Shown here: positions 2,184 through 15,932 of the stretch, piece after piece
Position numbering within the stretch: position 1 is the first letter of the stretch
How the letters are laid out: every line of letters starts with the position of its first letter
Assembly (NCBI GenBank): GCA_016931295.1
Contig: JAFGEZ010000021.1
Span: 1-49,473 of the forward strand
Length of the DNA: 49,473 bases
Reading direction: 5' to 3'
Origin: Candidatus Krumholzibacteriota bacterium
Lineage (GTDB): Bacteria > Krumholzibacteriota > Krumholzibacteriia > Krumholzibacteriales > Krumholzibacteriaceae
Notes under the pieces: generated by a model
Told to the model about the DNA's origin: nothing
Databases searched by the model: none
The model's input: the letters and a program-made list of their open reading frames with translations, nothing else
Position numbers and translations under genes: made by a program

Positions 2184-2459
2184 ACTGTTCCCCCTGCATG
2201 ACTGTTTAGTGTAGCAAGCAATTTAAAACAGATAATCTTACAATCTTCAATAGAATTTTCATCCCGTAGTATGACAGAAATTACATCAAACACCTTTGCT
2301 TGCCGTTCCATCCCTGACCTGCCAGGTGACTAAATCCCTTTCGGGGCAATCGAGTAGGGTGTCAACGTTCCCTTCATTCCTTTCTTCTCTCCTTATGCCG
2401 CGGCAAATTGTCCCTTTTCCCTTGCCCGCGGGCGTAACCCGTCTATATTCTTGATTACG

Positions 2460-3686
2460 ATGCTGAAGACACCGGCGAGCATAAAGCCTCATATCGTCCT
2501 GCTCGGGCGAACCAACGTCGGCAAATCGACGCTGATGAACGCCATCGCGCGGCAGCCGCTGGCGCTCACCTCGGATGTGCCCGGCACGACGACCGATCCG
2601 GTCCGCAAGTCCTACGAGCTTCTCCCTTTCGGCCCCGTCGTCTTCGTCGACACGGGCGGCCTCGACGACCCGAGCGTCCTCGGCGACCTGCGGGTGTCCC
2701 TCACCAAACGGGAGCTCCAGAAGGCCGACTTCGTGATCCTCGTCGTCCAGGCCGGCCTTTGGGGAGAGCCGGAGGAGCAGGCCCTCGCCACCCTCGAGGA
2801 AACGAACACCGGCCACCTCGTCGTCGTCAACAAGACCGACCTCGAGGCCGACTGGAAAGCCCCTCGGGAGGCGATCTACGTCTCGTCGACCGCCGACGAG
2901 GGGATCGAGGAGCTCCGCCTCGCCCTCATCGATCGTCTCGAGAAGACGGTGAAGCGCACGCCATCGGTCCTCGGCGACCTCATCGACATCGGCGATGCGG
3001 TCGTCCTCGTCTGCCCGATCGACACCGGCGCGCCGAAGGGGCGGTTGATCCTCCCCCAGGTGATGGCGATCCGCGACGTCCTGGACAACGACGCCGTCGC
3101 CGTCGTCATCAAGGAGGACCGCATCGCCGAAACGATCGCCGGCCTCGAGACCCCGCCGAGACTCCTCGTCTGCGACTCGCAGGTGATCGAGCTCGTCGCG
3201 CGGGAGACGCCCCCGCACGTGGCGGTGACAACCTTCTCGATCCTCTTCGCCCGCATGAAGGCCGATCTCGAGACCTTCGTGCGCGGGCTCTTCGCCATCG
3301 AGGAGATCCAGGACGGCGACAGGGTGCTCATCGCCGAGGCCTGCACGCACCACCCCCTCGAGGACGACATCGGCACGATCAAGATCCCGCGCTGGATGCG
3401 CGCCTACACCGGCAAAAAGATCGAATTCGTCAAGTCCTGCGGCAAGGACTACCCCGGGGACCTCGAGCAGTTCAGGATGATCGTCCACTGCGGGGGCTGC
3501 ATGCTCACAGCCCGCCACGTCGAGGTCCGCGTCGAGGAAGCCACGAAGCGCGGCGTGCCGATCACGAACTACGGCCTCGCCATCTCGTACCTCACCGGCG
3601 TGCTCGAACGCGCCCTCGACCCCTTCCCCGAGCTCCGGAGGCTCGTCCATGAACACCGCGCCGCTGCGCGTCGCGATCGTCGATGA
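2460..3686 (+). CDS. hydF: [FeFe]-hydrogenase maturation GTPase HydF.
   Basis: The G1 P-loop is GRTNVGKST, and DTGG and NKTD motifs follow. The C-terminal Fe-S motif is CTHHPLEDD...HCGGC (CxH...HCxxC). The ORF finder starts at TTG 2451; the ATG at 2460 is the more likely start. Confidence 0.85.
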   Translation: MLKTPASIKPHIVLLGRTNVGKSTLMNAIARQPLALTSDVPGTTTDPVRKSYELLPFGPVVFVDTGGLDDPSVLGDLRVSLTKRELQKADFVILVVQAGLWGEPEEQALATLEETNTGHLVVVNKTDLEADWKAPREAIYVSSTADEGIEELRLALIDRLEKTVKRTPSVLGDLIDIGDAVVLVCPIDTGAPKGRLILPQVMAIRDVLDNDAVAVVIKEDRIAETIAGLETPPRLLVCDSQVIELVARETPPHVAVTTFSILFARMKADLETFVRGLFAIEEIQDGDRVLIAEACTHHPLEDDIGTIKIPRWMRAYTGKKIEFVKSCGKDYPGDLEQFRMIVHCGGCMLTARHVEVRVEEATKRGVPITNYGLAISYLTGVLERALDPFPELRRLVHEHRAAARRDRR

Positions 3687-5010
3687 CAACGCCGAGTTCC
3701 GCGGCGTCATGGTCAAGGCGATGCGGAAACAGGGCTTCGCCGTCGAGGAATACGACGCCGGCGAGCCCTTCGTCGAGGGCTTCGCGCCGGGGCGTCTCGA
3801 TCTCATCCTCGTCGACCTCGTGATGCCGGGGATCGACGGGATCGAGGTCATCCGGCGCGTCAAGAAGAACGACCCCACCGTCGTCGCCATCGTCGTCTCC
3901 GCCCACGGCTCGGCCGAGACGATCGTCGAGGCGATCAAGGAGGGGGCCTTCGACTTCCTCACGAAGCCCTTCCGGCTCGACGAGCTGCGCGTCCTCCTCG
4001 AGAAGGCCCTGCGGCAGGTCGAGCGCAACCGGGAGCTCGCCTCGATCCGCGGCGACCTCTCCCGCGACCGCTTCTGCGGCATGATCGGCCGCTCCGCGGC
4101 GATGCGCCGCGTCTTCGAGCTGACCGACCGGATCGCCCGCCGCGACGTGACCGTCCTCGTCACCGGCGCCTCGGGCACGGGGAAGGAGCTCCTCGCCCGT
4201 GCGATCCACAACCTCTCCCCGCGGCGCACCGGCCCGTTCATGGCCGTCAACTGCGGCGCGATCCCCGACACCCTCATCGATGCCGAGCTCTTCGGCCACG
4301 AGAAGGGCTCCTTCACCGGGGCGAACGCCTCCCGCGAGGGGATCATCCGGGCGGCCGACGGCGGCACCCTCTTCCTCGACGAGATCGGCGACCTGCCCCT
4401 GCCCACCCAGCTCCGGCTGCTCCGCTTCCTCCAGGAGAAGGAGATCCGCCCGGTCGGCTCCGACACGACGCACACCGTCGACGTCCGCGTCGTCTCGGCC
4501 ACCAACCGCGACCTCGAGGACATGGTCCGCCGCGAGCGCTTCCGCGACGACCTCTTCTACCGCCTCAGCGTCGTGCCGGTCCAGGTCCCCACGCTCGCCG
4601 CGCGCCGCGACGACATCCCGCTCCTCGTCACCTACTTCGTTGAGAAGGCGGGGAAGAAGTACCGGATCGCGCCGCCGCGGATCGAGGGGGCCGCGATGGA
4701 TCAGCTCATCGTCTACGACTGGCCCGGCAACGTCCGCGAGCTGGAGAACGTGATGGAGCGGCTCGTCATCCTCGCCACGGGCGGCATCATCCGCGCCCGC
4801 GACCTCCCGCGCCAGATCGCCTCGCACGAGGCGACCCTCGCGGGGATCGACCTGCCCGCCGGCCTCACCCTCGACGAGCTCGAGCGGCGCTACATCGAAC
4901 GGACGATCGAGGAGGCCGGCGGCAACCGCACGCGCGCCGCCGAGATCCTCGGCATCGACCGCCGGACGATCCAGCGCAAGCTCCGCGCCTGGGACGACGA
5001 CGAGGCATGA
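3649..5010 (+). CDS. Sigma-54-dependent response regulator of the NtrC family, with receiver, AAA+ sigma-54 interaction and Fis-type HTH domains.
   Basis: The receiver begins VAIVDDN...D. Walker A is GASGTGKE, and the sigma-54-contact loop GHEKGSFTGA is present. The C-terminus AAEILGIDRRTIQRKL is an HTH. A GGAGG RBS lies 8 nt upstream. The gene overlaps the hydF 3' end by 38 nt. Confidence 0.85.
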   Translation: MNTAPLRVAIVDDNAEFRGVMVKAMRKQGFAVEEYDAGEPFVEGFAPGRLDLILVDLVMPGIDGIEVIRRVKKNDPTVVAIVVSAHGSAETIVEAIKEGAFDFLTKPFRLDELRVLLEKALRQVERNRELASIRGDLSRDRFCGMIGRSAAMRRVFELTDRIARRDVTVLVTGASGTGKELLARAIHNLSPRRTGPFMAVNCGAIPDTLIDAELFGHEKGSFTGANASREGIIRAADGGTLFLDEIGDLPLPTQLRLLRFLQEKEIRPVGSDTTHTVDVRVVSATNRDLEDMVRRERFRDDLFYRLSVVPVQVPTLAARRDDIPLLVTYFVEKAGKKYRIAPPRIEGAAMDQLIVYDWPGNVRELENVMERLVILATGGIIRARDLPRQIASHEATLAGIDLPAGLTLDELERRYIERTIEEAGGNRTRAAEILGIDRRTIQRKLRAWDDDEA

Positions 5011-5128
5011 CGCCCCGCCGCCGTCCGCTGCCGCGCCCCCGCGACGACCGAACTCACAGCCTGACAACAGGATAACCCACTCCCGCGCGCCTGGCCTCAT
5101 ATCTCGTTATATTGCAAGGCGTTACGAT

Positions 5129-5144
5129 TGGCACCATCGTTGCA
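5129..5144 (+). promoter_or_regulatory. Sigma-54 (RpoN) -24/-12 promoter, TGGCAC-catcg-TTGCA.
   Basis: This is an exact match to the TGGCAC-N5-TTGCA consensus, with GG-N10-GC spacing. It lies 166 nt upstream of the NuoE-like gene start at 5310 and just downstream of the NtrC-type activator gene. Confidence 0.6.
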
Positions 5145-5309
5145 GTCTCCCCATGCGGAGGCTGAACAGGATGACGCGAAACAACGACAACAGAATACAG
5201 GGATTCGAGTTACAGGGTACGGGGGCCGGCGGGGGACTGCGACGGAATGTCCCGGACCGGCCGACGGGGTGCGGCAATCCGCCGCGCCGTCACGGGAAGT
5301 GAGGTGACC

Positions 5310-5795
5310 ATGCATCCGGAAGCCGCAAGCGCACGAGAAATCACCGGGATCATCGGCGAGGTCCCCCGCGGGCGCCACGATCTCGTCATCCCGACGCTCC
5401 AGCGCGTCCAGGCGACGCTCGGGTACATCCCCGAGCAGGTCGTCTTCGACCTCGCCGAGCAGGTCGGCACGACGCCGGCCGCCGTCTTCGGCGTCGCCAC
5501 CTTCTACAACCAGTTCCGCCTGACCGCCCCCGGCGAGCACACGATCCGCGTCTGCCGCGGGACGGCCTGCCACGTGAAGGGCAGCGCCAGGATACTCGAC
5601 ACGATCTGCCGCGCGCTCGGCGTCGCATCGGGCGAGACGACACGCGACGGGCTCTTCACCGTCGAGGAGGTCGCCTGCCTCGGCTCCTGCTCGATCGCGC
5701 CGGCCGTGATGATCGACGACCGCTTCTACGGGCACGTGACGGCCGAGGGGCTCGTCGAGCTCGCCGAGGCGATCTCGCGCGGAGGTGACGCATGA
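5310..5795 (+). CDS. NuoE-like thioredoxin-fold [2Fe-2S] subunit of the bifurcating [FeFe] hydrogenase (HydC/HndA type).
   Basis: The Cys motif is CRGTACHVKG...CLGSCSIAP. The RBS GAGGTGA precedes the ATG at 5310 (the ORF-finder frame starts at 5247). The stop overlaps the next gene's start as ATGA. Confidence 0.8.
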   Translation: MHPEAASAREITGIIGEVPRGRHDLVIPTLQRVQATLGYIPEQVVFDLAEQVGTTPAAVFGVATFYNQFRLTAPGEHTIRVCRGTACHVKGSARILDTICRALGVASGETTRDGLFTVEEVACLGSCSIAPAVMIDDRFYGHVTAEGLVELAEAISRGGDA

Positions 5796-7738
5796 CCGGC
5801 GAACTGTACAGGCGCTGGGAGGAAGCGGGCCGGCCGGGGCATTTCCTCGCGTGGGCCTTCGGGAACAACGACGACGCGGCGGAGACGATCCGCCTGCTCA
5901 GGCGCGAGACGATCGAGCGCCCGCAGGTCTTCGTGGGCACGGGCACCTGCGGCCTCGCCTCCGGCGCCGCCGACGTCCTCGCCGCCTTCAGCGAGGCGGC
6001 CGCCGCCGGCACCATCGACGCCGACATCCACGAGGCCGGCTGCCTCGGCTTCTGCCGCATGGAGCCCCTCGTCGAGATCCAGCTTCCCGGCGGACCGGGC
6101 GTCCTCTACGGCGAGGTCACCCCGGCCGAGGTCCCGGCCATCGCCAACACGGTCCTCGCCGGCGGCCGGCACGACGCGGCCCGGGCCCTCCTCCGCTTCG
6201 ACGACGGCCCGCCGATCGACGGCATCGATGCCGTCGCCGACCACCCCTTCTTCAGGCCCCAGCGCCGCATCGTGCTCTCGCGCGTCGGGCGCTTCGATCC
6301 GGACGACCTCTCCGCCGCCATCGCGCGGGAGGATTACCGCGGCCTGCTCGAGGCGCTGACCGCGAAGACGCCCGGGGAGACGGTCGCCACGATCGAGGCT
6401 TCCGGGCTCCGCGGCCGCGGCGGGGGCGGCTTCCCCACGGGCACGAAGTGGAAGCTCGCCGCCCGCGAGCAGTCCGACCGCAAGTACGTCGTCATGAACG
6501 CCGACGAGGGCGATCCCGGCGCGTTCATGGACCGCTCGGTCCTCGAGAGCGATCCGCACGCGGCGATCGAGGGGATGGCCCTCTGCGGCTACGCGATCGG
6601 CGCCGCCGAGGGGTACATCTACTGCCGCGCCGAGTACCCGCTCGCCATCCGGCGGCTCGAGACCGCCATCGCCGACGCGCGCGAGGCGGGGATCCTCGGC
6701 GAGAACATCCTCGGCACCGGCTTCTCCTTCGACATCCGGATCAAGATGGGCGCCGGCGCCTTCGTCTGCGGCGAGGAGACGGCGCTCCTCGCCTCGATCG
6801 AGGGCAAGCGCGGCATGCCCCGCCCCCGCCCCCCCTATCCGGCCCAATCGGGGCTGTTCGGCCGTCCGACCGTCATCAACAACGTCGAATCCATGGCCAA
6901 CATCGGCTGGATCGTGTCGAACGGCCCCGAGGCCTTCCGCGCCGTCGGGACGCCGGGCTCGCCCGGCACGAAGGTCTTCGCCCTCTCGGGCAAGCTCGAG
7001 CGGAGCGGCCTCGCCGAGGTTCCGATGGGGATCTCGATCGGCGAGATCGTCGAGGGGATCGGCGGCGGGAGCGAGACGGGGCTTGCCCTCAAGGCCGTGC
7101 AGATCGGCGGCCCGTCGGGGGCCTGCGTCCCCGTCGACCTCTGGCACACCGCGGTCGACTACGACGAGCTCAAGCGGATCGGCGCCATGATGGGCTCGGG
7201 CGGACTCGTCGTGATGGACGAGGGGACCTGCATGGTCGACGTGGCGCGCTTCTTCCTCGACTTCACCACGAAGGAATCCTGCGGCAAGTGCACCCCCTGC
7301 CGCGAGGGGACGCGGCGGATGCGCCACATCCTCGAGCAGCTCACCACCCGGTGGGGCGATCCCGACGAGGGTGGCGCGCTCGCCCGCTTCTCCGGGCTCA
7401 TCGAGCTCGAGCGCGTCGCCCGCGACGTGCAGAAGACGGCCCTCTGCGGGCTCGGGCAGACGGCGCCCAACCCGGTGCTCTCCACCCTGAAGTTCTTCCG
7501 CGGCGAGTACGAGGCGCACCTCTACGACCGCCGCTGCCCCGCGGGGGTCTGCACGGCCCTCAGGGAGTACGCGATCGACCCTGAGGCCTGCGTCGGCTGC
7601 GGCCGCTGCAAGAAGCTCTGCCCGGCGAACGCGATCGTCGGGTCGCCGAAGAAGACGCACTACATCGTCGAGGAGAAATGCATCGGCTGCGGCTCCTGCG
7701 CGGACACCTGCACGTTCGATGCGGTGACGGTCTCGTAG
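5792..7738 (+). CDS. NuoF-like NAD(P)H/FMN-binding subunit (HydB/HndC type). It has an N-terminal 2Fe-2S thioredoxin-like domain and a C-terminal 2x[4Fe-4S] ferredoxin.
   Basis: GRGGGGFPTGTKW is the FMN/NADH site. CGKCTPCREG is an N3-type 4Fe-4S motif. The C-terminus has CVGCGRCKKLCP and CIGCGSCADTC. The N-terminal motif is CGLASGA...CLGFCRMEP. Confidence 0.85.
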   Translation: MTGELYRRWEEAGRPGHFLAWAFGNNDDAAETIRLLRRETIERPQVFVGTGTCGLASGAADVLAAFSEAAAAGTIDADIHEAGCLGFCRMEPLVEIQLPGGPGVLYGEVTPAEVPAIANTVLAGGRHDAARALLRFDDGPPIDGIDAVADHPFFRPQRRIVLSRVGRFDPDDLSAAIAREDYRGLLEALTAKTPGETVATIEASGLRGRGGGGFPTGTKWKLAAREQSDRKYVVMNADEGDPGAFMDRSVLESDPHAAIEGMALCGYAIGAAEGYIYCRAEYPLAIRRLETAIADAREAGILGENILGTGFSFDIRIKMGAGAFVCGEETALLASIEGKRGMPRPRPPYPAQSGLFGRPTVINNVESMANIGWIVSNGPEAFRAVGTPGSPGTKVFALSGKLERSGLAEVPMGISIGEIVEGIGGGSETGLALKAVQIGGPSGACVPVDLWHTAVDYDELKRIGAMMGSGGLVVMDEGTCMVDVARFFLDFTTKESCGKCTPCREGTRRMRHILEQLTTRWGDPDEGGALARFSGLIELERVARDVQKTALCGLGQTAPNPVLSTLKFFRGEYEAHLYDRRCPAGVCTALREYAIDPEACVGCGRCKKLCPANAIVGSPKKTHYIVEEKCIGCGSCADTCTFDAVTVS

Positions 7739-7754
7739 AAAGGCGGAGGACGCG

Positions 7755-9464
7755 ATGTCAGTGAATCTCACCGTGAACGGAACGAAGACGAGGGCGGCTC
7801 GGGGCGAGACGATCCTCTCGGTCGCCAGGCGCCTCGGGATCGAGATCCCCACCCTCTGCCACATCGACGGCCTCGAGCCGAACGGCGCCTGCCGGATCTG
7901 CGTCGTCGACGTCGGCGGCCGGCTCGTCCCCTCCTGCTCCACACCGGTCGCCGAGGGGATGGAGGTGACGACGAACTCCACGGCCGTGCTCCGGGCCAGG
8001 AAGACGATCGTCGAGCTCCTCCTCGCCGCCCACCCGAGCGAGTGCACGACCTGCTTCAAGTCGGACAGCTGCGAGCTGGCGCGCCTCGCCCGCGAGTACT
8101 CGATCGAGCGGATCAAGGTGCCGAGGGGATACGCGCGGCGCCTCCCCGACTCCTCCAACGCGGCGATCGTCCGCGAGCCGGAGAAATGCATCCTCTGCGG
8201 CAAGTGCGTGCGCGTCTGCAACGAGATCCAGGGGGTCGGCGCGATCGACTTCGCCCGGCGCGGGGCCGACACGACGGTCCAGCCGGTCTTCGGGCGCGCC
8301 CTCGGGCTGACCCAGTGCACCTTCTGCGGCCAGTGCATCAACGCCTGCCCCACCGGGGCCCTCCACGAGGCCTCGCACATCGACCGGGTCCTCGCCGCCC
8401 TCGCCGACCCCGCCGTCACGACCGTCGTCCAGGTGGCGCCGGCGATCCGCGTGTCGATCGGCGAGCTCTTCGACATGGCCCCGGGCTCGGTCGTCACCGG
8501 CAAGCTCGCCGCCGCGCTCCGCCGCGTCGGGTTCGACCGGGTCGTCGACACCGATTTCGCCGCCGACCTCACGATCATGGAGGAGGGCTCGGAGTTCGTG
8601 AAGCGCCTCCGCGAGGGCGGCCCCCTGCCCCTCCTCACGAGCTGCTCGCCGGGATGGGTGAAGTTCATGGAGCACAACTGGCCCGAGCTCCTGCCGAACC
8701 TCTCCACGTGCAAGTCGCCGCACGAGATGCTGGGCGCCGTCGTGAAGGGCTGCTGGGCGCCCGAGGCGGGCATCGATCCCGCGACGGTCTTCGTCGTCTC
8801 CGTGATGCCCTGCACGGCGAAGAAGTACGAGGCGGGCCGGCCAGAGCTGGGCGACGGGGGGATCGGCGACGTCGACGCCGTCCTCACGACGCGCGAGGCG
8901 GGACGCCTCCTCCGGCTCTTCGGCATCGATCTCGCCGCGATGCCCGAGGAGGATTTCGACCACCCCCTCGGCGCCTCGACCGGCGCGGCGGCGATCTTCG
9001 GCCGCTCGGGTGGCGTCCTCGAGGCGGCGCTGCGCACCGTCCACCAGCTGTTGACCGGCGAGGAACTCGCCTCCCTCGATTTCGAGACCGGCGGCCCCGG
9101 GATCCGCGAGACGACGGTCGACGTCGCCGGCTCGCGCGTGAGGGTGGCGACGGCCTCGGGGCTGGCCGCCGCGCGCGCGCTCGTCGAACGGGTCCGCGCC
9201 GGGGAGACCTTCCACATGATCGAGATCATGGCCTGCCCGGGCGGGTGCATCAACGGCGGCGGGCAGCCCTACGCCGACGCCGAGACGGCCCGGCTGCGCA
9301 GGAGCGCCCTCAACGTGGTCGACCGGAGCATGCCGGTCAGGCGCAGCCACCTGAATCCCGAGATCGCGGCGCTCTACCGGAACGTCCTCGGCAGGCCGCT
9401 CTCGGAGAAGAGCCACGAGCTGCTGCACACGACCTACACGGAGCGAACGCTCTTCAACGCGTGA
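7755..9464 (+). CDS. hydA: [FeFe]-hydrogenase catalytic subunit HydA, M3 architecture. In this gene context it belongs to group A3 (bifurcating).
   Basis: The N-terminal 2Fe-2S motif is CRIC. A His-ligated 4Fe-4S site reads HPSECTTCFKSDSC. Two ferredoxin motifs follow, CILCGKCVRVC and CTFCGQCINACP. The H-cluster motifs are L2 MPCTAKKYE and L3 EIMACPGGCINGGGQP. L1 reads TSCSPGW, which is atypical. The RBS is GGAGG. Confidence 0.9.
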   Translation: MSVNLTVNGTKTRAARGETILSVARRLGIEIPTLCHIDGLEPNGACRICVVDVGGRLVPSCSTPVAEGMEVTTNSTAVLRARKTIVELLLAAHPSECTTCFKSDSCELARLAREYSIERIKVPRGYARRLPDSSNAAIVREPEKCILCGKCVRVCNEIQGVGAIDFARRGADTTVQPVFGRALGLTQCTFCGQCINACPTGALHEASHIDRVLAALADPAVTTVVQVAPAIRVSIGELFDMAPGSVVTGKLAAALRRVGFDRVVDTDFAADLTIMEEGSEFVKRLREGGPLPLLTSCSPGWVKFMEHNWPELLPNLSTCKSPHEMLGAVVKGCWAPEAGIDPATVFVVSVMPCTAKKYEAGRPELGDGGIGDVDAVLTTREAGRLLRLFGIDLAAMPEEDFDHPLGASTGAAAIFGRSGGVLEAALRTVHQLLTGEELASLDFETGGPGIRETTVDVAGSRVRVATASGLAAARALVERVRAGETFHMIEIMACPGGCINGGGQPYADAETARLRRSALNVVDRSMPVRRSHLNPEIAALYRNVLGRPLSEKSHELLHTTYTERTLFNA

Positions 9465-9477
9465 GGAGGCCGGGGCG

Positions 9478-11496
9478 ATGAAAGGCGTCGTACACACGAT
9501 CGGCGAGAGATGCAAGCGGTGCTTCACCTGCGTCAGGGAGTGCCCGGCGCACGCCGTGCGCATCTCCGGCGGCCAGGCGGTGGTCCTCGAGGACCGTTGC
9601 CTGTCCTGCGGCCACTGCGTGAGCGTCTGCAGCCAGGGAGCCAAATCGGTCGAGGACGGCACCGCCCCGACGGCGGCCATGCTCGCCGACCCCGAGACGA
9701 AAACGATCGCGATCCTCGCCCCCTCCTTCCCCTCCTACGTCGATTGCGATCCCCCCGACCGTCTCGTCGGCGCGCTCCGCGCGCTCGGATTCGACGAGGT
9801 GATGGAGGTCGCCTTCGGAGCCGACATGGTCGCGGCCGAGTACGGGCGGATCTACGAGTCGTCCACGGGATCGCAGATCACCACCCCCTGCCCCTCGATC
9901 TACTTCTACGTGTGCAAGTACATGCCCGATCTCATCCCGCGGCTCTCGCCGGTCGTCTCGCCGATGATCGCCATGGCGCGCCTCATCAAGTGGCGCCTCG
10001 ATCCGGAGGCCAGGGTCGTCTTCATCGGCCCCTGCGTCGCCAAGAAGTCGGAGGCGGAGGATCCCTCGGTGGCGGGCGTCGTCGACGCGGTGCTCACCTT
10101 CCGCGAGCTGCGCGGCATGTTCGCCGACCGGGGCATCGACCCGGTGGCCTGCGAGCCGGCCGCGTTCGACGGCCCGGCGGCGTGGCGCGGGCGCCTCTTC
10201 CCCGTCTCGGGGGGGCTTCTCGTCTCCGCGGGGGTCGCCCGCGACCTCGAGGAGAACGAGGTGATCGTGGCCGAGGGGAAGAACCGGGCGATCCCGCTCC
10301 TCAAGAGCCTCGGCGAGGGCGTGATCGAACCGCGCTTCCTCGACATCCTCTTCTGCGAGGGCTGCGTGAACGGCCCCTTCTGCCGCGACCGCGAGGATAT
10401 CTTCAGGAACCGCGACAGCGTGCTGCGGTACTACCGCGAACACCGCGAACGCTTCGACGAGGACGCGTGGCGGCGGAACATGGCCGCGACCGCCGGCATC
10501 GACCTCGGCCGCTCTTTCGTGGCCGACACGCGCCGGCTGCCGATGCCCTCCGAGGAGCAGATCAACGAGCAGCTGCGGCGCATGGGCAAGACGGGACCGA
10601 AGGACGAGCTGAACTGCGGGGCCTGCGGCTACCGTTCCTGCCGCGAGCACGCCATCGACGTCCTCCGCGGGCTCGCCGAATCGGAGATGTGCCTCCCCTA
10701 CACGGTCGACCAGCTCGAGTCGACCCTCGGGCAGCTCGAGGAGAGCAACCGGCGGTTCCGCGACGCGCAGCAGCAGCTCATCCAGAACGAGAAGATGGCC
10801 GCGATGGGCCAGCTCGCCGCGGGCGTCGCGCACGAGGTGAACAACCCGCTCGGCACGGTCCTGCTCTACTCGCACATGATCCTCGAATCCCTCGAGGGGG
10901 AGGATCCCAACCGCGAGGACCTCTCGATCATCGTCCGCGAGACGGAGCGCTGCCGGCGGATCGTGGCCGACCTCCTCGATTTCGCCAGGCAGAACAAGCT
11001 CGTCCTCTCCAACGTCGACCTCGAGAGCTTCCTCCGGGATACGATCGAGCCGTCAGTGCGCGCGCCGGAGAACGCCGCCGTCCGGTTCGATTTCGAGACC
11101 GCCCCGATCCCGGAGATCGCCGTCGACGCCGACCAGGTCCGCCAGGTCGTCCTCAACGTCGTCCAGAACGCCCTCGAGGCGATGGAACGGCGCGGCCGGA
11201 TCGTCGTGCGGCTCTACCGCTCCCCCGACGGCGACCGGGCGGTCATCGAGATCGTGGACGACGGGCCGGGGATCCCCGAGAACGCGCTTTCGAGGATCTT
11301 CACCCCGTTCTTCACGACGAAACCGATCGGCAAGGGCACCGGACTCGGCCTCGCGATCGCCTACGGGATCGTGAAGCTCCACCGCGGCGACATCGCCGCG
11401 CGGAACGGAAACGCCGGGGGCGCGACGCTCCGGGTGGAGATCCCCTACGGTCTCGGCGAGACGGCGGCCGGGGAGGACACCTTCAATGACGGCTAG
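9478..11496 (+). CDS. Sensory (HydS-like, group C) [FeFe]-hydrogenase H-cluster domain fused to a histidine kinase (HisKA + HATPase_c).
   Basis: The N-terminus has 2x[4Fe-4S] ([23 protein letters not shown]). The H-domain has degenerate L1 TTPCPSIY, L2 GPCVAKKSE and L3 FCEGCVNG. An extra Cys cluster CGACGYRSC follows, then a coiled coil. The HisKA H-box is [12 protein letters not shown]. The ATPase N/G boxes are NALEAM, DDGPGI and [10 protein letters not shown]. The RBS is GAGGAGG. Confidence 0.8.
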
Positions 11497-11614
11497 AACG
11501 ACGGAGAACGCAGCACGACGCACTGCTGAACCGATGGGGACCCGCGCGGCGACTCGGGCCGGATGCCGCGCCGGGTTCCCCCCCACAACGGACCCGGCCC
11601 GAAGGAGACCTGTC

Positions 11615-12016
11615 ATGGCTAAGGTTCTGCTCGTCGACGACGATCCCGATTTCCGGGAAATGGGCACCGAAGTCCTCTCGGCGGCCGGCCACGAGGTCGT
11701 GACCGCGGCGTCCGGCAAGGAAGGATTCGAGGCGGCGCTCCGGGAGACGCCCGACGCGGCCGTCATCGACCTGATGATGGAGACGGTCGACGCCGGCGCC
11801 GTGCTCTGCCGCAAGCTGAAGAACGACGACCGGACGAAGTCGATCCCCCTGCTGATGCTCACCGCCGTCACCGAGGCCACCGGCTTCAAGTTCGGCATCG
11901 ACACCGAGGGGGAACGGGACTGGATCCTCGCCGACGAGTACGTCGACAAGCCGATCCCCTTCCCGGAACTCGTCAAGCGCGTCGGCAACCTCCTGGGCAA
12001 TGCAGCGCGCAGCTGA
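11615..12016 (+). CDS. Stand-alone CheY-like response-regulator receiver domain protein.
   Basis: The sequence reads KVLLVDDDPDF...D...LMLTA...K. The ATG at 11615 follows the RBS GAAGGAG. The ORF-finder frame starts earlier in Arg-rich sequence that is unlikely to be coding. Confidence 0.7.
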   Translation: MAKVLLVDDDPDFREMGTEVLSAAGHEVVTAASGKEGFEAALRETPDAAVIDLMMETVDAGAVLCRKLKNDDRTKSIPLLMLTAVTEATGFKFGIDTEGERDWILADEYVDKPIPFPELVKRVGNLLGNAARS

Positions 12017-13520
12017 GCATACGAGGGCCGTCCGCATCCTCGTCGTCGACGACGAATGGGGGATGCGGACCGGCGCGAAGCGGATCCTCGAGCGGGAAGG
12101 CTACGAGGTGGAGACGGCCGGGGACGGCGCCGGCGCCATCGCGCTGGCCACGCCGGCGCCGTTCGACGTCTGTCTCGTCGATCTCAAGCTCCCCGACGTC
12201 GACGGCCTCACCCTGCTCAAGGAGTTCCACGGGATCGACGCGAGCACGGTCTGCATCGTGATCACGGCCTACGCGAGCCTCGAGACGGCGATCGAGGCGA
12301 CGAGGCGGGGCGCGTGGGACTTCCTGCCGAAGCCCTTCACCCCGCAGGCGCTGCGGGCCGTCGTGGCCCGCGCCGCCGAGCGGCGTCTCCTCCTCGAGGA
12401 GGCCGACCGCCTGCGCCGCGAGCGCGAGGAGCGGCTGCTCGAGCTGGCCGGCGAGCGCAGCCGGACGAGCACGATCCTCTCCAACCTCACGACGGGCGTC
12501 GTCGTCGTCAACGAGGCGGGCGAGCTCGCCCTCTTCAACACGGCCGCCCTGAGCCTGCTCGCCGAGCCCGCGCTCGAGACGGGCGCGGGCTTCCTCGCCC
12601 AGCTGCCGGCCGGGGAGCTGCGCGAGGCGATCGCGCGGCTCCTCGACGGAACGATCGAGGAGGCGATCCACACGACGATCGAGGCCCCCGGCGTCGCCGA
12701 GGGGCAGACGCTCTCGGTGACCGCCGCCCCGGTCCCGGGGCCGAGGGGGGGCATCTCGGGGCGGACGATCAGCATCAGGGACGTCACCGACCGGGCCGAG
12801 CTCGACCGGGCGAAGTCGAACTTCGTCCGGATCGTCTCCCACGAGGTCAAGGCGCCCGTCGGCGCGGTCATCGGGTTCATCGACATGATCCTCGAGGGCT
12901 ACGCCGCCGACCCGGAAAAGCAGCGCGAGTACCTCGCGCGGGCACGCGGCCGCCTCGAGGGGCTCGTGACGATGGTCAAGGACCTTCTGGCGATGACCCG
13001 CCAGGAGACCCGGGGGGCCGGGCGGAGCTTCGAGCCGGTCGACCTGGTCGGACTCGTCCGGGAGACGGTCGCCTCGCTCGAGCCGGACTGGCGGGCGCGA
13101 TCGATCGCCGTCGAGGTGGCCGGCGACGGGGCGCCCCCCGTCGTCGGGGACGAGCCGGGGCTCGGGCAGGTGTTCACCAATCTCCTCTCGAACGCCATCA
13201 AGTACAACCGCCCCGGCGGCCGCGTCACGGTCTCGATGCGCGAATCGGGGGCCGGGGTGGAGACGACCGTGACCGACACGGGCGTCGGCATGGATCGGGA
13301 ATCGCTTGCGCGCATCTGGGAACCCTTTTATCGTATCAAGTCGGCCGAGACGAAGGACGTCCCCGGAACGGGGCTCGGACTCTCCATCGTGCGTGCGATC
13401 GTCGAGACGCACAAGGGCCGCATCGAAGTCACATCGTCACCCGGCGAAGGCACCACGTTCACCCTGTGGTTGCCGCGCGCGCCCGGCGGGGCGGACGGGG
13501 GACCGGAGAACGCCGCGTAA
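12000..13520 (+). CDS. Hybrid two-component protein with an N-terminal receiver, a PAS-like linker and a HisKA/HATPase_c histidine kinase.
   Basis: The receiver is ILVVDDEWGMR...DVCLVDLKLPDVDG...KPF. The H-box is RIVSHEVKAP. The N/G boxes are NLLSNAIKYN, DTGVGM and GTGLGLSIV. Confidence 0.75.
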   Translation: MQRAAEHTRAVRILVVDDEWGMRTGAKRILEREGYEVETAGDGAGAIALATPAPFDVCLVDLKLPDVDGLTLLKEFHGIDASTVCIVITAYASLETAIEATRRGAWDFLPKPFTPQALRAVVARAAERRLLLEEADRLRREREERLLELAGERSRTSTILSNLTTGVVVVNEAGELALFNTAALSLLAEPALETGAGFLAQLPAGELREAIARLLDGTIEEAIHTTIEAPGVAEGQTLSVTAAPVPGPRGGISGRTISIRDVTDRAELDRAKSNFVRIVSHEVKAPVGAVIGFIDMILEGYAADPEKQREYLARARGRLEGLVTMVKDLLAMTRQETRGAGRSFEPVDLVGLVRETVASLEPDWRARSIAVEVAGDGAPPVVGDEPGLGQVFTNLLSNAIKYNRPGGRVTVSMRESGAGVETTVTDTGVGMDRESLARIWEPFYRIKSAETKDVPGTGLGLSIVRAIVETHKGRIEVTSSPGEGTTFTLWLPRAPGGADGGPENAA

Positions 13521-13545
13521 AGCGGCGTGGGGAGGTGGATCGCCG

Positions 13546-14949
13546 ATGACCGGGTTCATCGACGTCGAACGGATCGAGTCGCTGCTCGCCGAGGGACGGC
13601 GTGCCGACCGGCAGACGGTCGAGGACGTGATCGAGCGCGCGGCCGAGAAGGAGGGGCTGACTCCCACGGAGACGGCAGTCCTGCTCGGCTGCGAGGACAC
13701 CGAGCTCTGGGAAGAGATCTACGCCCTCGCCCGGAAGATCAAGGAAGACATCTACGGGCGGCGGATCGTGCTCTTCGCCCCCCTCTACGTCTCGAACCTC
13801 TGCCAGAACGACTGCCTGTACTGCGCCTTCCGGCGGAGCAACGAGGAGTGCGCGCGCATCGCCCTCGGCCCCGAGGAGGTCGCCCGCGAGGTGCGCGCCC
13901 TCGAGAGCGTCGGGCACAAGCGGCTGCTCATGGTCTACGGCGAGCATCCCGCCTACGGCGTCGACTACATGGTCCAGACGATCCGCGCGGCCTACGAGAC
14001 CCGCACCCCGGACCGCCACGGGGAGATCCGCCGGATCAACGTGAACGCCGCCCCCCTGAGCGTCGAGGACTACCGGCGGCTCAAGGAGGCCGAGATCGGC
14101 ACCTTCCAGGTCTTCCAGGAGACCTACCACCCGGGCCGATACCGCGAGGTGCACCCGCCCAACACCCGCAAGGGGGATTTCGAGTGGCGGCTCTACGCGC
14201 TCCACCGCGCGCAGGAGGCCGGACTCGACGACGTCGCCGTCGGCGCCCTCTTCGGTCTCTACGACTGGCGCTTCGAGGTGATGGGCCTTCTCATGCACGC
14301 GCTCGACATGGAGCGCGTCTTCGGCGTCGGGCCGCACACGATCTCCTTCCCGCGGCTCGAGCCGGCGATCAACACGCCCTTCACCGGCTACTCGCGCTGG
14401 AAGACCTCCGACGAGGAGTTCAAGCGGCTCGTGGCCGTCTTGCGGCTCATGGTCCCCTACACCGGCCTGATCCTCACCGCGCGCGAGCGCCCCGAGCTCC
14501 GGCGCGAGTACATCCGCCTCGGCGTCTCGCAGATCGACGGCGGCACGCGGATCGACATCGGCGGCTACGGCAAGGGCCCCGCGACGGTCGAGACGGAGAA
14601 GGAGAAGCAGCAGTTCGAGATCTTCGACAACCGCTCGCTCGACGAGGTCGTGCTGGAGCTGGCGAAGACGGGCTACGTCCCCTCCTTCTGCACGGCATGC
14701 TACCGTTCGGCCCGCACCGGCGAGACCTTCATGGAATTCGCCAAGCACGGCGACATCAAGAACATGTGCCTGCCGAACGCGATTTTGACCTTCAAGGAGT
14801 ATCTCGAGGACTTCGCGTCGCCCGCAACGCGCCTCGTGGGCACGAAGCTCATCGAGGAACTGCTCAGGGGCACGGAGAACGGTCCGCGCTCGGCGCTGGA
14901 GAAGAAGATCGGCCGCATCGAGCGCGGCGAGCGCGACGTGTACTGCTAG
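13546..14949 (+). CDS. hydG: [FeFe]-hydrogenase maturase HydG (radical-SAM tyrosine lyase).
   Basis: The radical-SAM CxxxCxxC motif is CQNDCLYC. The C-terminal auxiliary-cluster motif is CTACYRS...NMC. The RBS GGGGAGG precedes the ATG at 13546. Confidence 0.85.
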   Translation: MTGFIDVERIESLLAEGRRADRQTVEDVIERAAEKEGLTPTETAVLLGCEDTELWEEIYALARKIKEDIYGRRIVLFAPLYVSNLCQNDCLYCAFRRSNEECARIALGPEEVAREVRALESVGHKRLLMVYGEHPAYGVDYMVQTIRAAYETRTPDRHGEIRRINVNAAPLSVEDYRRLKEAEIGTFQVFQETYHPGRYREVHPPNTRKGDFEWRLYALHRAQEAGLDDVAVGALFGLYDWRFEVMGLLMHALDMERVFGVGPHTISFPRLEPAINTPFTGYSRWKTSDEEFKRLVAVLRLMVPYTGLILTARERPELRREYIRLGVSQIDGGTRIDIGGYGKGPATVETEKEKQQFEIFDNRSLDEVVLELAKTGYVPSFCTACYRSARTGETFMEFAKHGDIKNMCLPNAILTFKEYLEDFASPATRLVGTKLIEELLRGTENGPRSALEKKIGRIERGERDVYC

Positions 14950-15932
14950 CGGCGCCTGATCCCCCCGCCGCGCCCGCGGCCGACCGAGAGCCCCAGCTCG
15001 TCGAGGGTCGCCGCGGTGCATTCGCGGCACGACTCGGTCGAGCCGCAGGCGGCCCGCTCGTAGATCTCGTACGCGGCCGCCGCCTCGCGCGGCGTGTAGT
15101 CGATCATGATGACGTTCGCCCCCGATCGCATCGCCCGCGCGCGGGCCTGCCGCCCGTAGACGCACATCGCCGTCGTCGAGGGCATGTGCGCCCCGGGTGC
15201 GACGAGCCGCCCGAGGGCGAGGACGCGCAGGACACGGTCGATGGGGGGCGGATCGAGATCGCCGAGGGGGGTTCCCGCCGCGGGGATCAGCGGCGAGACC
15301 GAGATCATGTCGTAGGGCGTTCGCGCCCAGTCGAGGATGTCGGCGGCGAGATGCTCCGCCGTCTGCCCGGGAAGCCCCACGATGTTCCCGCTCCCCGTCT
15401 CGTACCCGAGGGCGAGGAGGTCGTCGATGCAGCGGCGGCGGTTCTCCCAGCTCATCCCGGGGTGGAGCGTGCCGTAGAGCTCGCGGTCGGCCGCCTCGAG
15501 CTTGAGGAGATACCGGTCGGCGCCGGCCTCGCGCCACGCCCGGTAGACCTCCCGCGGCCATTCGCCCACCGAGAGGGTCACGGCGACGTCGAACCGCTCC
15601 TTGATCGCCGCGACCGTCTGTCCGAGGCCCTCGACGTCGAGACCGGGATGCTCCCCCGACTGCAGGACGATCGTGCGGAAGCCGTCCGCCGCGGCGCAAC
15701 CGGCCCGTTCGATCACCGTCTCCCAGGAAAGGTCGTAGCGGCTGACGAGATCGTTGTCGCAGCGCAGCCCGCAGTAGGCGCAGCGGCCGACGCAGCGGTT
15801 GGAGAACTCGACGATCGCGCGGAGGTGGACGACGTCGCCGTGGACGCGGCGGCGCTCGCGGTCGGCGCGGGCGCAGAGTCCGGCGGTCGCCTCAGCGTCG
15901 TCCAGGAGCCTGATGATCTCGCGCTCGTCCAT
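14946..15932 (-). CDS. hydE: [FeFe]-hydrogenase maturase HydE (radical SAM, BioB-like).
   Basis: The radical-SAM motif is CVGRCAYC, followed by a biotin-synthase-like TIM barrel of 328 aa. The gene converges on hydG with overlapping stop codons. Confidence 0.85.
   Translation of the reverse strand: MDEREIIRLLDDAEATAGLCARADRERRRVHGDVVHLRAIVEFSNRCVGRCAYCGLRCDNDLVSRYDLSWETVIERAGCAAADGFRTIVLQSGEHPGLDVEGLGQTVAAIKERFDVAVTLSVGEWPREVYRAWREAGADRYLLKLEAADRELYGTLHPGMSWENRRRCIDDLLALGYETGSGNIVGLPGQTAEHLAADILDWARTPYDMISVSPLIPAAGTPLGDLDPPPIDRVLRVLALGRLVAPGAHMPSTTAMCVYGRQARARAMRSGANVIMIDYTPREAAAAYEIYERAACGSTESCRECTAATLDELGLSVGRGRGGGIRRR

Follow-up and report, generated by a model that had tools for sequence, protein, structure and literature searches.

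The hydA gene of the window (the whole stretch of DNA analysed here, 49,473 nucleotides) very probably encodes the catalytic subunit of a HydABC-type [FeFe] hydrogenase (group A3 of HydDB, 'A6' of NCBIfam) with a common natural Ser-type L1 motif, and a normal active enzyme is to be expected because the relay Cys297 and the remaining proton pathway are intact. This HydA, with Ser298 at the position of a ligand of the H-cluster cubane, is an ordinary member of a natural variant that is documented, widespread and functional, and that was already known. The gene sits in a complete HydABC-type cluster, together with the genes for H-cluster maturation:

2451 to 3686, plus strand: hydF, H-cluster maturation GTPase (TIGR03918, 494.5 bits against a cut-off of 325.55; P-loop and CxH...HCxxC)
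5247 to 5795, plus strand: hydC, NuoE-like thioredoxin-type [2Fe-2S] subunit, 182 aa in the listed ORF (Pfam and PDB matches)
5792 to 7738, plus strand: hydB, NuoF-like flavoprotein with a C-terminal 2x[4Fe-4S] ferredoxin domain, 648 aa (Pfam and PDB matches)
7755 to 9464, plus strand: hydA, catalytic [FeFe] hydrogenase subunit, 569 aa (Pfam, NCBIfam and PDB matches)
13546 to 14949, plus strand: hydG, radical-SAM H-cluster maturase (TIGR03955, 491.3 bits against a cut-off of 312.15)
14946 to 15932, minus strand: hydE, radical-SAM H-cluster maturase (TIGR03956, 261.2 bits against a cut-off of 254.6)

HydA is built from N-terminal [2Fe-2S] and [4Fe-4S] ferredoxin-like domains, an H-domain and a small-subunit-like C-terminus, with Pfam matches to Fe_hyd_lg_C (PF02906, 2e-89), Fer2_4, NADH-G_4Fe-4S_3 and Fe_hyd_SSU. 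It scores above the cut-offs of two NCBIfam models, NF040763 (FeFe_hydrog_A6, 'NADH-dependent [FeFe] hydrogenase, group A6'; 785.7 bits against 765) and TIGR02512 (FeFe_hydrog_A; 478.1 against 405.95). HydB contains Complex1_51K, NADH_4Fe-4S and two Fer4 domains (residues 594-646). Its residues 42-646 match HydB of Acetobacterium woodii (7q4v_B, E=9.5e-196), 7p5h_B and 8a6t_B match it across almost the full length, and in the region of the two Fer4 domains the alignment extends to the end of the proteins from A. woodii and Thermotoga maritima. HydC carries 2Fe-2S_thioredx (PF01257, 8.9e-46) and matches HydC of Thermoanaerobacter kivui (8a6t_C, E=7.7e-38); its true start may lie further downstream than that of the listed ORF, as homology begins only near residue 35-40 and the orthologue in a relative (L001, see below) has 156 aa. 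The HydDB rule for group A3 is an adjacent partner with a NuoF domain (PMC5037454), and hydB is found immediately upstream of hydA. The names given to this group differ, NCBIfam using 'NADH-dependent' and HydDB 'bifurcating'. The three maturase genes, all above their equivalog cut-offs, flank the operon at no more than 6.5 kb from hydA.

The serine lies in the first of the three H-cluster motifs, which are placed as follows:

8637 to 8657, plus strand: L1 motif TSCSPGW, residues 295-301 of hydA
8643 to 8645, plus strand: codon of the relay Cys297, within L1
8646 to 8648, plus strand: TCG codon of Ser298, at the cubane-ligand position (CpI C300)
8805 to 8831, plus strand: L2 motif MPCTAKKYE, residues 351-359
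9222 to 9269, plus strand: L3 motif EIMACPGGCINGGGQP, residues 490-505

Read in frame, ACG AGC TGC TCG CCG GGA TGG gives T295-S296-C297-S298-P299-G300-W301, so the T-S-C-S-P-G-W that an earlier note on this DNA had described in L1 of HydA is borne out by the 569-aa ORF. The same note had put the codon of the ligand position at 8649-8651 when naming reads that would refute it; those three bases are the Pro codon, and the Ser codon is 8646-8648. But is this serine truly in register with the ligand? A phmmer search against all PDB chains found T. kivui HydA1 (8a6t_A, E=6.8e-181) as the top-scoring solved homologue over residues 3-564, followed as second-best solved structure by A. woodii HydA1 (7q4v_A, E=5.4e-163, 546.9 bits, also residues 3-564), with CpI of Clostridium pasteurianum (4xdc/4xdd) matched at about 1e-130. 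From about residue 205 to 408 the alignments to CpI (4xdd/4xdc), 8a6t and 7q4v contain zero gaps. The identity to these solved structures is enough to settle the fold. The cysteines of TSCCP are residues 299 and 300 when the CpI chain is counted, and the window residues C297 and S298 thus correspond to C299 and C300, respectively. In CpI, the established roles are proton relay for C299 and cubane ligation for C300. These roles are consistent with PMC8163306 and PMC5855289. The gapless alignment therefore upholds the claim that Ser occupies the [4Fe-4S]H ligand position, and the comparison with CpI around L1, which the earlier note had proposed as a check, is ungapped and brings no different nearby Cys into the ligand register.

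The rest of the active site is as expected for a hydrogenase. In L2, Cys353 corresponds to the CpI ligand C355, Lys356 to K358 and Met351 to M353; in L3, Cys494 corresponds to C499, Cys498 to the bridging C503 and Met492 to M497. The cubane ligands C353, C494 and C498 and the second-sphere residues M351, K356 and M492 are hence all kept, and the pattern MPCxxKxxE / ExMxCxxGCxxG with the three remaining Cys ligands is found in MPCTAKKYE and EIMACPGGCING (residues 490-501). The earlier note was right to call L2 (351-359) and L3 (490-505) canonical. Residues E277, E280, R284 and S317 of the proton pathway align without gaps to E279, E282, R286 and S319 of CpI. Among 122 sequences aligned with MAFFT, Cys353 and the relay Cys (CpI C299 position) are invariant (122/122 each) and the L3 Cys pair is present in 121, the remaining one having a gap at these columns. 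Only the fourth ligand site stands apart: L1 falls outside a strict all-Cys TSCCPxW, and with Ser298 it falls within a Cys-or-Ser definition taken from the solved HydABC enzymes.

Could the serine be an artefact, or could another cysteine be doing its work? The note had offered both an assembly error and a local register shift as alternatives, and both are rejected. If the real codon at 8646-8648 were TGC or TGT, the protein would have the canonical TSCCP, but such an error needs two base changes from TCG, as had been correctly pointed out. An independent metagenome assembly (L002, ENA ERZ23495388, 95.5% nucleotide identity over hydA) has all seven L1 codons identical to those of the window, ACG AGC TGC TCG CCG GGA TGG. 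The relative L001 (GCA_964443405.1, 71% identity) has the same Ser encoded by AGC in place of TCG. TSCSPGW is present in all five closest homologues (64-96% identity), and the search for the TSCSP variant in close relatives, suggested earlier, found C-S-P in 111 of the best 120 database homologues and C-C-P in 7 (in the 122-sequence alignment, Ser in 114 and Cys in 8, one of which is CpI). The chance that sequencing or assembly produced this serine is accordingly close to nil. A register shift or a substitute ligand would leave Ser298 a bystander, with the cubane ligated by Cys297 or by Cys319 of the STCKSP segment. Cys319 is the sole extra Cys near the site, and its distribution over the solved enzymes is what this reading would call for, since the window protein and A. 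woodii share it and CpI and T. kivui have Ala instead. However, as a compensating cysteine Cys319 (CpI A321 position) was tried and rejected: it is found in 110 of 114 Ser-type and 7 of 8 Cys-type sequences, CpI being the exception. Thus it does not co-vary with Ser298, and since it occurs in both types (in 7/7 of the Cys-type homologues with CpI set aside) and is Ala in four Ser-type sequences, it is no substitute ligand. L1 has no indels nearby relative to four solved enzymes, and the cryo-EM model of the A. woodii enzyme places Ser301 at the ligand site. As for Cys297, the relay Cys is kept whichever residue occupies the ligand position (118/118 of the diverse representatives described below), as expected if it retains its role in proton relay. 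Ligation by either cysteine in place of Ser298 therefore seems very improbable.

How common is a serine at this site? An exhaustive phmmer search of 1.84 billion representatives clustered at 50% identity yielded 150 diverse relatives, 118 of them with recognisable L1 and L2, and Ser stands at the ligand position in 23 of these 118 (19.5%). This agrees with the about 20% published by Kertess et al. for putative [FeFe] hydrogenase sequences (PMC5855289). In the clade of the window HydA, Ser is the majority state. The codons were surveyed at 82 loci, 80 from species-representative genomes together with L001 and L002, spanning Bacillota, Desulfobacterota, Bacteroidota, Spirochaetota, Chloroflexota and Planctomycetota; a Ser AGY codon stands at the ligand position in 30, a Ser TCN in 29 and a Cys TGY in 24. 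TGY is one step from either Ser codon family. The presence of both Ser codon families across species genomes shows that Ser at this site is maintained by selection. On a neighbour-joining tree of 291 unique H-domains, Fitch parsimony placed Cys at the root and called for 16 or more changes between Cys and Ser, a number that is indicative only as the tree is crude. Together with the codon data, these changes indicate that the site toggles repeatedly between the two residues.

A serine at this position has been documented before. Work of Katsyv et al. in 2023 reported that Ser301 of A. woodii replaces the Cys ligand of the H-cluster cubane (their A1 cluster, Figure S4i), and that this enzyme resembles the one from T. 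kivui in its infrared signatures and activities (PMC10021017). A. woodii HydA1 (7q4v, 7q4w, 8a5e) has an L1 identical to that of the window protein, TSCSPGW, with its Ser301 equivalent to Ser298. The two share domain architecture (residues 3-564) and NuoF-like and NuoE-like partners, although their sequences have diverged to about 47-50% identity. T. kivui HydA1 (8a6t, 8bew) has the same HydABC architecture but differs in its canonical TSCCPSW, in which Cys299 is the fourth cubane ligand. CpI (4xdc, 3c8y), the prototype of group A, shares with the window protein the H-domain fold and every matched residue (C299/E279/E282/R286/S319, C355/C499/C503 and K358/M353/M497), but it is a monomeric, ferredoxin-dependent enzyme with Cys300, whereas the window protein has Ser298 and partners of NuoE and NuoF type. 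The earlier note had judged Ser 'unusual for a catalytic HydA'. This is contradicted by the active and structurally solved A. woodii HydABC with TSCSPGW, and it also runs against the frequency of about one in five, published (PMC5855289) and found again in the present tally. Di Rienzi et al. had noted TSCSPGW in the trimeric hydrogenases of Melainabacteria as early as 2013, in an early metagenome paper in which Ser-type enzymes were flagged as defective (PMC3787301). A full-text search of the literature for the motif TSCSP returned nothing relevant beyond this paper, and a literature search on HndD and serine gave no match.

How would such an enzyme work? The gene arrangement and the presence of the three maturases make a mechanism as in the HydABC enzymes of A. 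woodii and T. kivui likely. Three cysteines (Cys353, Cys494 and the bridging Cys498) would hold the cubane of the H-cluster, and Ser298 would occupy the fourth site in the manner of A. woodii Ser301. By analogy with that residue, Ser298 would coordinate iron; in the A. woodii cryo-EM model itself, a Ser O-gamma bond is indistinguishable from a cluster that is bound by three Cys and has a Ser or a water close by. H2 would be split at the H-cluster, where Cys297 would be the first to relay protons to the adt amine; the protons would leave through Cys297, S317, E277, E280 and R284. Electrons would pass from the F-clusters of HydA to the flavin of HydB. The expected product is a hydrogenase linked to NAD(H) and ferredoxin, with maturation by the adjacent HydE, HydF and HydG, and the complex may, like the A. 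woodii HydABC, bifurcate electrons.

A different reading of the same serine is that the missing ligand betrays a degenerate, non-catalytic paralogue, a HydA-like protein that has lost its activity or serves regulation alone. It finds its arguments in the paper of Di Rienzi et al. and in the algal enzyme CrHydA1, where C115 (mature numbering) adjoins the relay C114. Kertess et al. made the C115S variant in 2017 and found [4Fe-4S] incorporation nearly abolished and no activity (PMC5855289). This is the same Cys-to-Ser exchange at the same L1 site, and because the variant failed to hold its [4Fe-4S] cluster, Ser is not tolerated in every scaffold. The natural Ser-type scaffold of A. woodii, with the same motif as the window protein, is active, whereas the algal variant is not. 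Moreover, the window protein keeps every other catalytic residue (the L3 cysteines, M351, M492, K356 and the full proton pathway), Ser is under purifying selection across phyla, and HydB, HydC, HydE, HydF and HydG are encoded alongside. The neighbouring gene encodes a separate paralogue that is clearly sensory and has another set of motifs. A dead or merely regulatory HydA is thus less probable still than a substitute ligand, and the reading preferred here is that of a catalytic Ser-type subunit.

For annotation, the Ser variant casts no doubt on the function of the gene, for which 'HydABC-type [FeFe] hydrogenase catalytic subunit, Ser-type L1' would be a fitting name. To decide if a HydA is catalytic, the textbook TSCCPxW is better read as TSC[CS]PxW; applied strictly, TSCCPxW would flag about one fifth of genuine catalytic [FeFe] hydrogenases, and most of the NuoF-partnered clade, as defective.

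Why is Ser tolerated in some scaffolds? The contrast between active natural Ser-type scaffolds and the failed algal exchange has already been raised in the literature as a question, and it extends beyond this window. Ser-type and Cys-type sequences of the 120 closest homologues are told apart best by the columns H532/Y, A411/S, A424/S, G416/A, P219/G and P505/L. As second-sphere residues that switch together with the ligand they were rejected, all of them coming from one Cys clade of 7 members and being confounded by phylogeny. In 13 phylogenetically independent Ser/Cys sister contrasts, a comparison of low power as the pairs differ at 32-52% of sites, no column changed in a consistent direction; an E-to-D change that occurred four times came closest. 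A further idea is that the choice of Ser or Cys as fourth ligand is an adaptive tuning knob in HydABC-type hydrogenases and not a neutral swap. In such a scheme, the choice would shift the potential of [4Fe-4S]H, or Ser would act as a protonatable, hemilabile ligand, and the outcome could be catalytic bias, protection against oxygen or redox stress, or gating of electrons into the bifurcating branch. We regard adaptive tuning as unlikely. If it were true, the toggling (at least 16 switches, with near-equal use of the two Ser codon families and Cys) would reflect lineage-specific selection, and the window locus would be one example, its Ser-type HydA having a sensory paralogue of Cys type as neighbour.

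The cluster of the window also carries regulatory genes, among them a sigma-54-dependent regulator and a histidine kinase that resembles hydrogenases:

3649 to 5010, plus strand: sigma-54-dependent response regulator (REC, AAA+ sigma-54 activator and Fis-type HTH; Pfam), directly upstream of hydC
9478 to 11496, plus strand: hydrogenase-like sensor histidine kinase (Pfam Fe_hyd_lg_C 1.2e-48, FeS (PF04060), HisKA and HATPase_c)
11486 to 12016, plus strand: single-domain response regulator (Pfam), true start probably later
12000 to 13520, plus strand: REC-PAS-HisKA-HATPase hybrid kinase (Pfam)

The sensor kinase is regulatory context and stands outside the catalytic complex. From its N-terminus it is laid out as 2x[4Fe-4S], an H-domain, a Cx2Cx4Cx16C motif (residues 380-405), HisKA and HATPase_c, and its L1, TTPCPS, aligns to TSCSPG of HydA. 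The position of its gene is kept in both L001 and L002, in which the two further two-component genes (11486 to 13520) are conserved as well. A regulator of the same sigma-54-dependent type lies directly upstream of hydC in L001, but on the opposite strand. The window itself comes from an uncultured bacterium of 68% GC, and the nearest named relative among the HydA matches is a Zixiibacteriota MAG at 64% identity.

What might control the hydrogenase genes? They lie in a self-contained island, ordered hydF, a sigma-54 response regulator, hydC, hydB, hydA, a hydrogenase-like histidine kinase, a response regulator, a REC-PAS hybrid kinase, hydG and hydE.

2451..15932, the hydrogenase island, with hydE on the opposite strand
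9478..11496, + strand, a hydrogenase-like histidine kinase fusion of 672 aa, immediately 3' of hydA

This gene content and order suggests that the hydCBA operon is under H2-responsive, sigma-54-dependent control. From the sigma-54 regulator through to the hybrid kinase, the core gene order is kept in L001, the 71%-identical relative, which carries the regulator on the other strand, and the order hydA to hydG and hydE is seen in L002, an independent metagenome assembly that starts inside hydB. Both retain the kinase fusion gene in unchanged position.

The kinase fusion is built of two [4Fe-4S] modules, an H-domain, a Cx2Cx4Cx16C motif (residues 380-405), HisKA and HATPase_c, and it has no PAS domain. 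Its L1 motif is TTPCPS: Pro stands where the relay Cys would be and Cys fills the ligand site, an arrangement opposite to the Cys-Ser pair in the HydA of the window. The L2 motif reads GPCVAKK; that of L3, CEGCVNG, spaces its cysteines as CxxC and not as CxxxC. These traits fit HydDB group C1 ('histidine kinase-linked'), a class with a putative H2-sensing role, and also the sensory-type characters reported for HydS enzymes.

Ser at the L1 ligand position also occurs in duplicate. Four loci (L031, L036, L051 and L071, from Prolixibacteraceae, Mariniphaga, an unclassified metagenome chromosome and a Bacteroidia MAG) each carry two hydA-like genes on the same strand, about 3.5 kb apart, and both copies encode TSCSPGW, with the Ser codon being AGT in one and TCT, TCG or TCA in the other. 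These pairs are within-genome paralogues, and they hold both Ser codon families at the L1 site. Another feature of HydA is Cys333 (nt 8751-8753), which is lineage-specific; the position is Tyr or Phe in 111 of the 122 aligned sequences.

The best match of the representative search was P0121, a protein of 4122 aa in which seven segments match the HydA query, for a score of 1950.9 bits. Candidate readings are a giant multi-H-domain protein and a concatenation or gene-calling artefact; a pattern search of it did not find the canonical L1 and L2 motifs.

Two observations bear on the wider affinity of the organism.

L001 14008..16908, - strand, a Peptidase_M4 protein that includes a Por_Secre_tail (type IX secretion) domain

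This protein and P0005, a Zixiibacteriota match (64% identical), hint at a place for the window organism within the FCB-group radiation.

The window has a GC content of 67.9%, and every real gene in it is overlapped by long spurious ORFs in other frames and strands, so that ORF length alone is uninformative here. One example is:

5726..9253, - strand, a spurious ORF of 1175 aa
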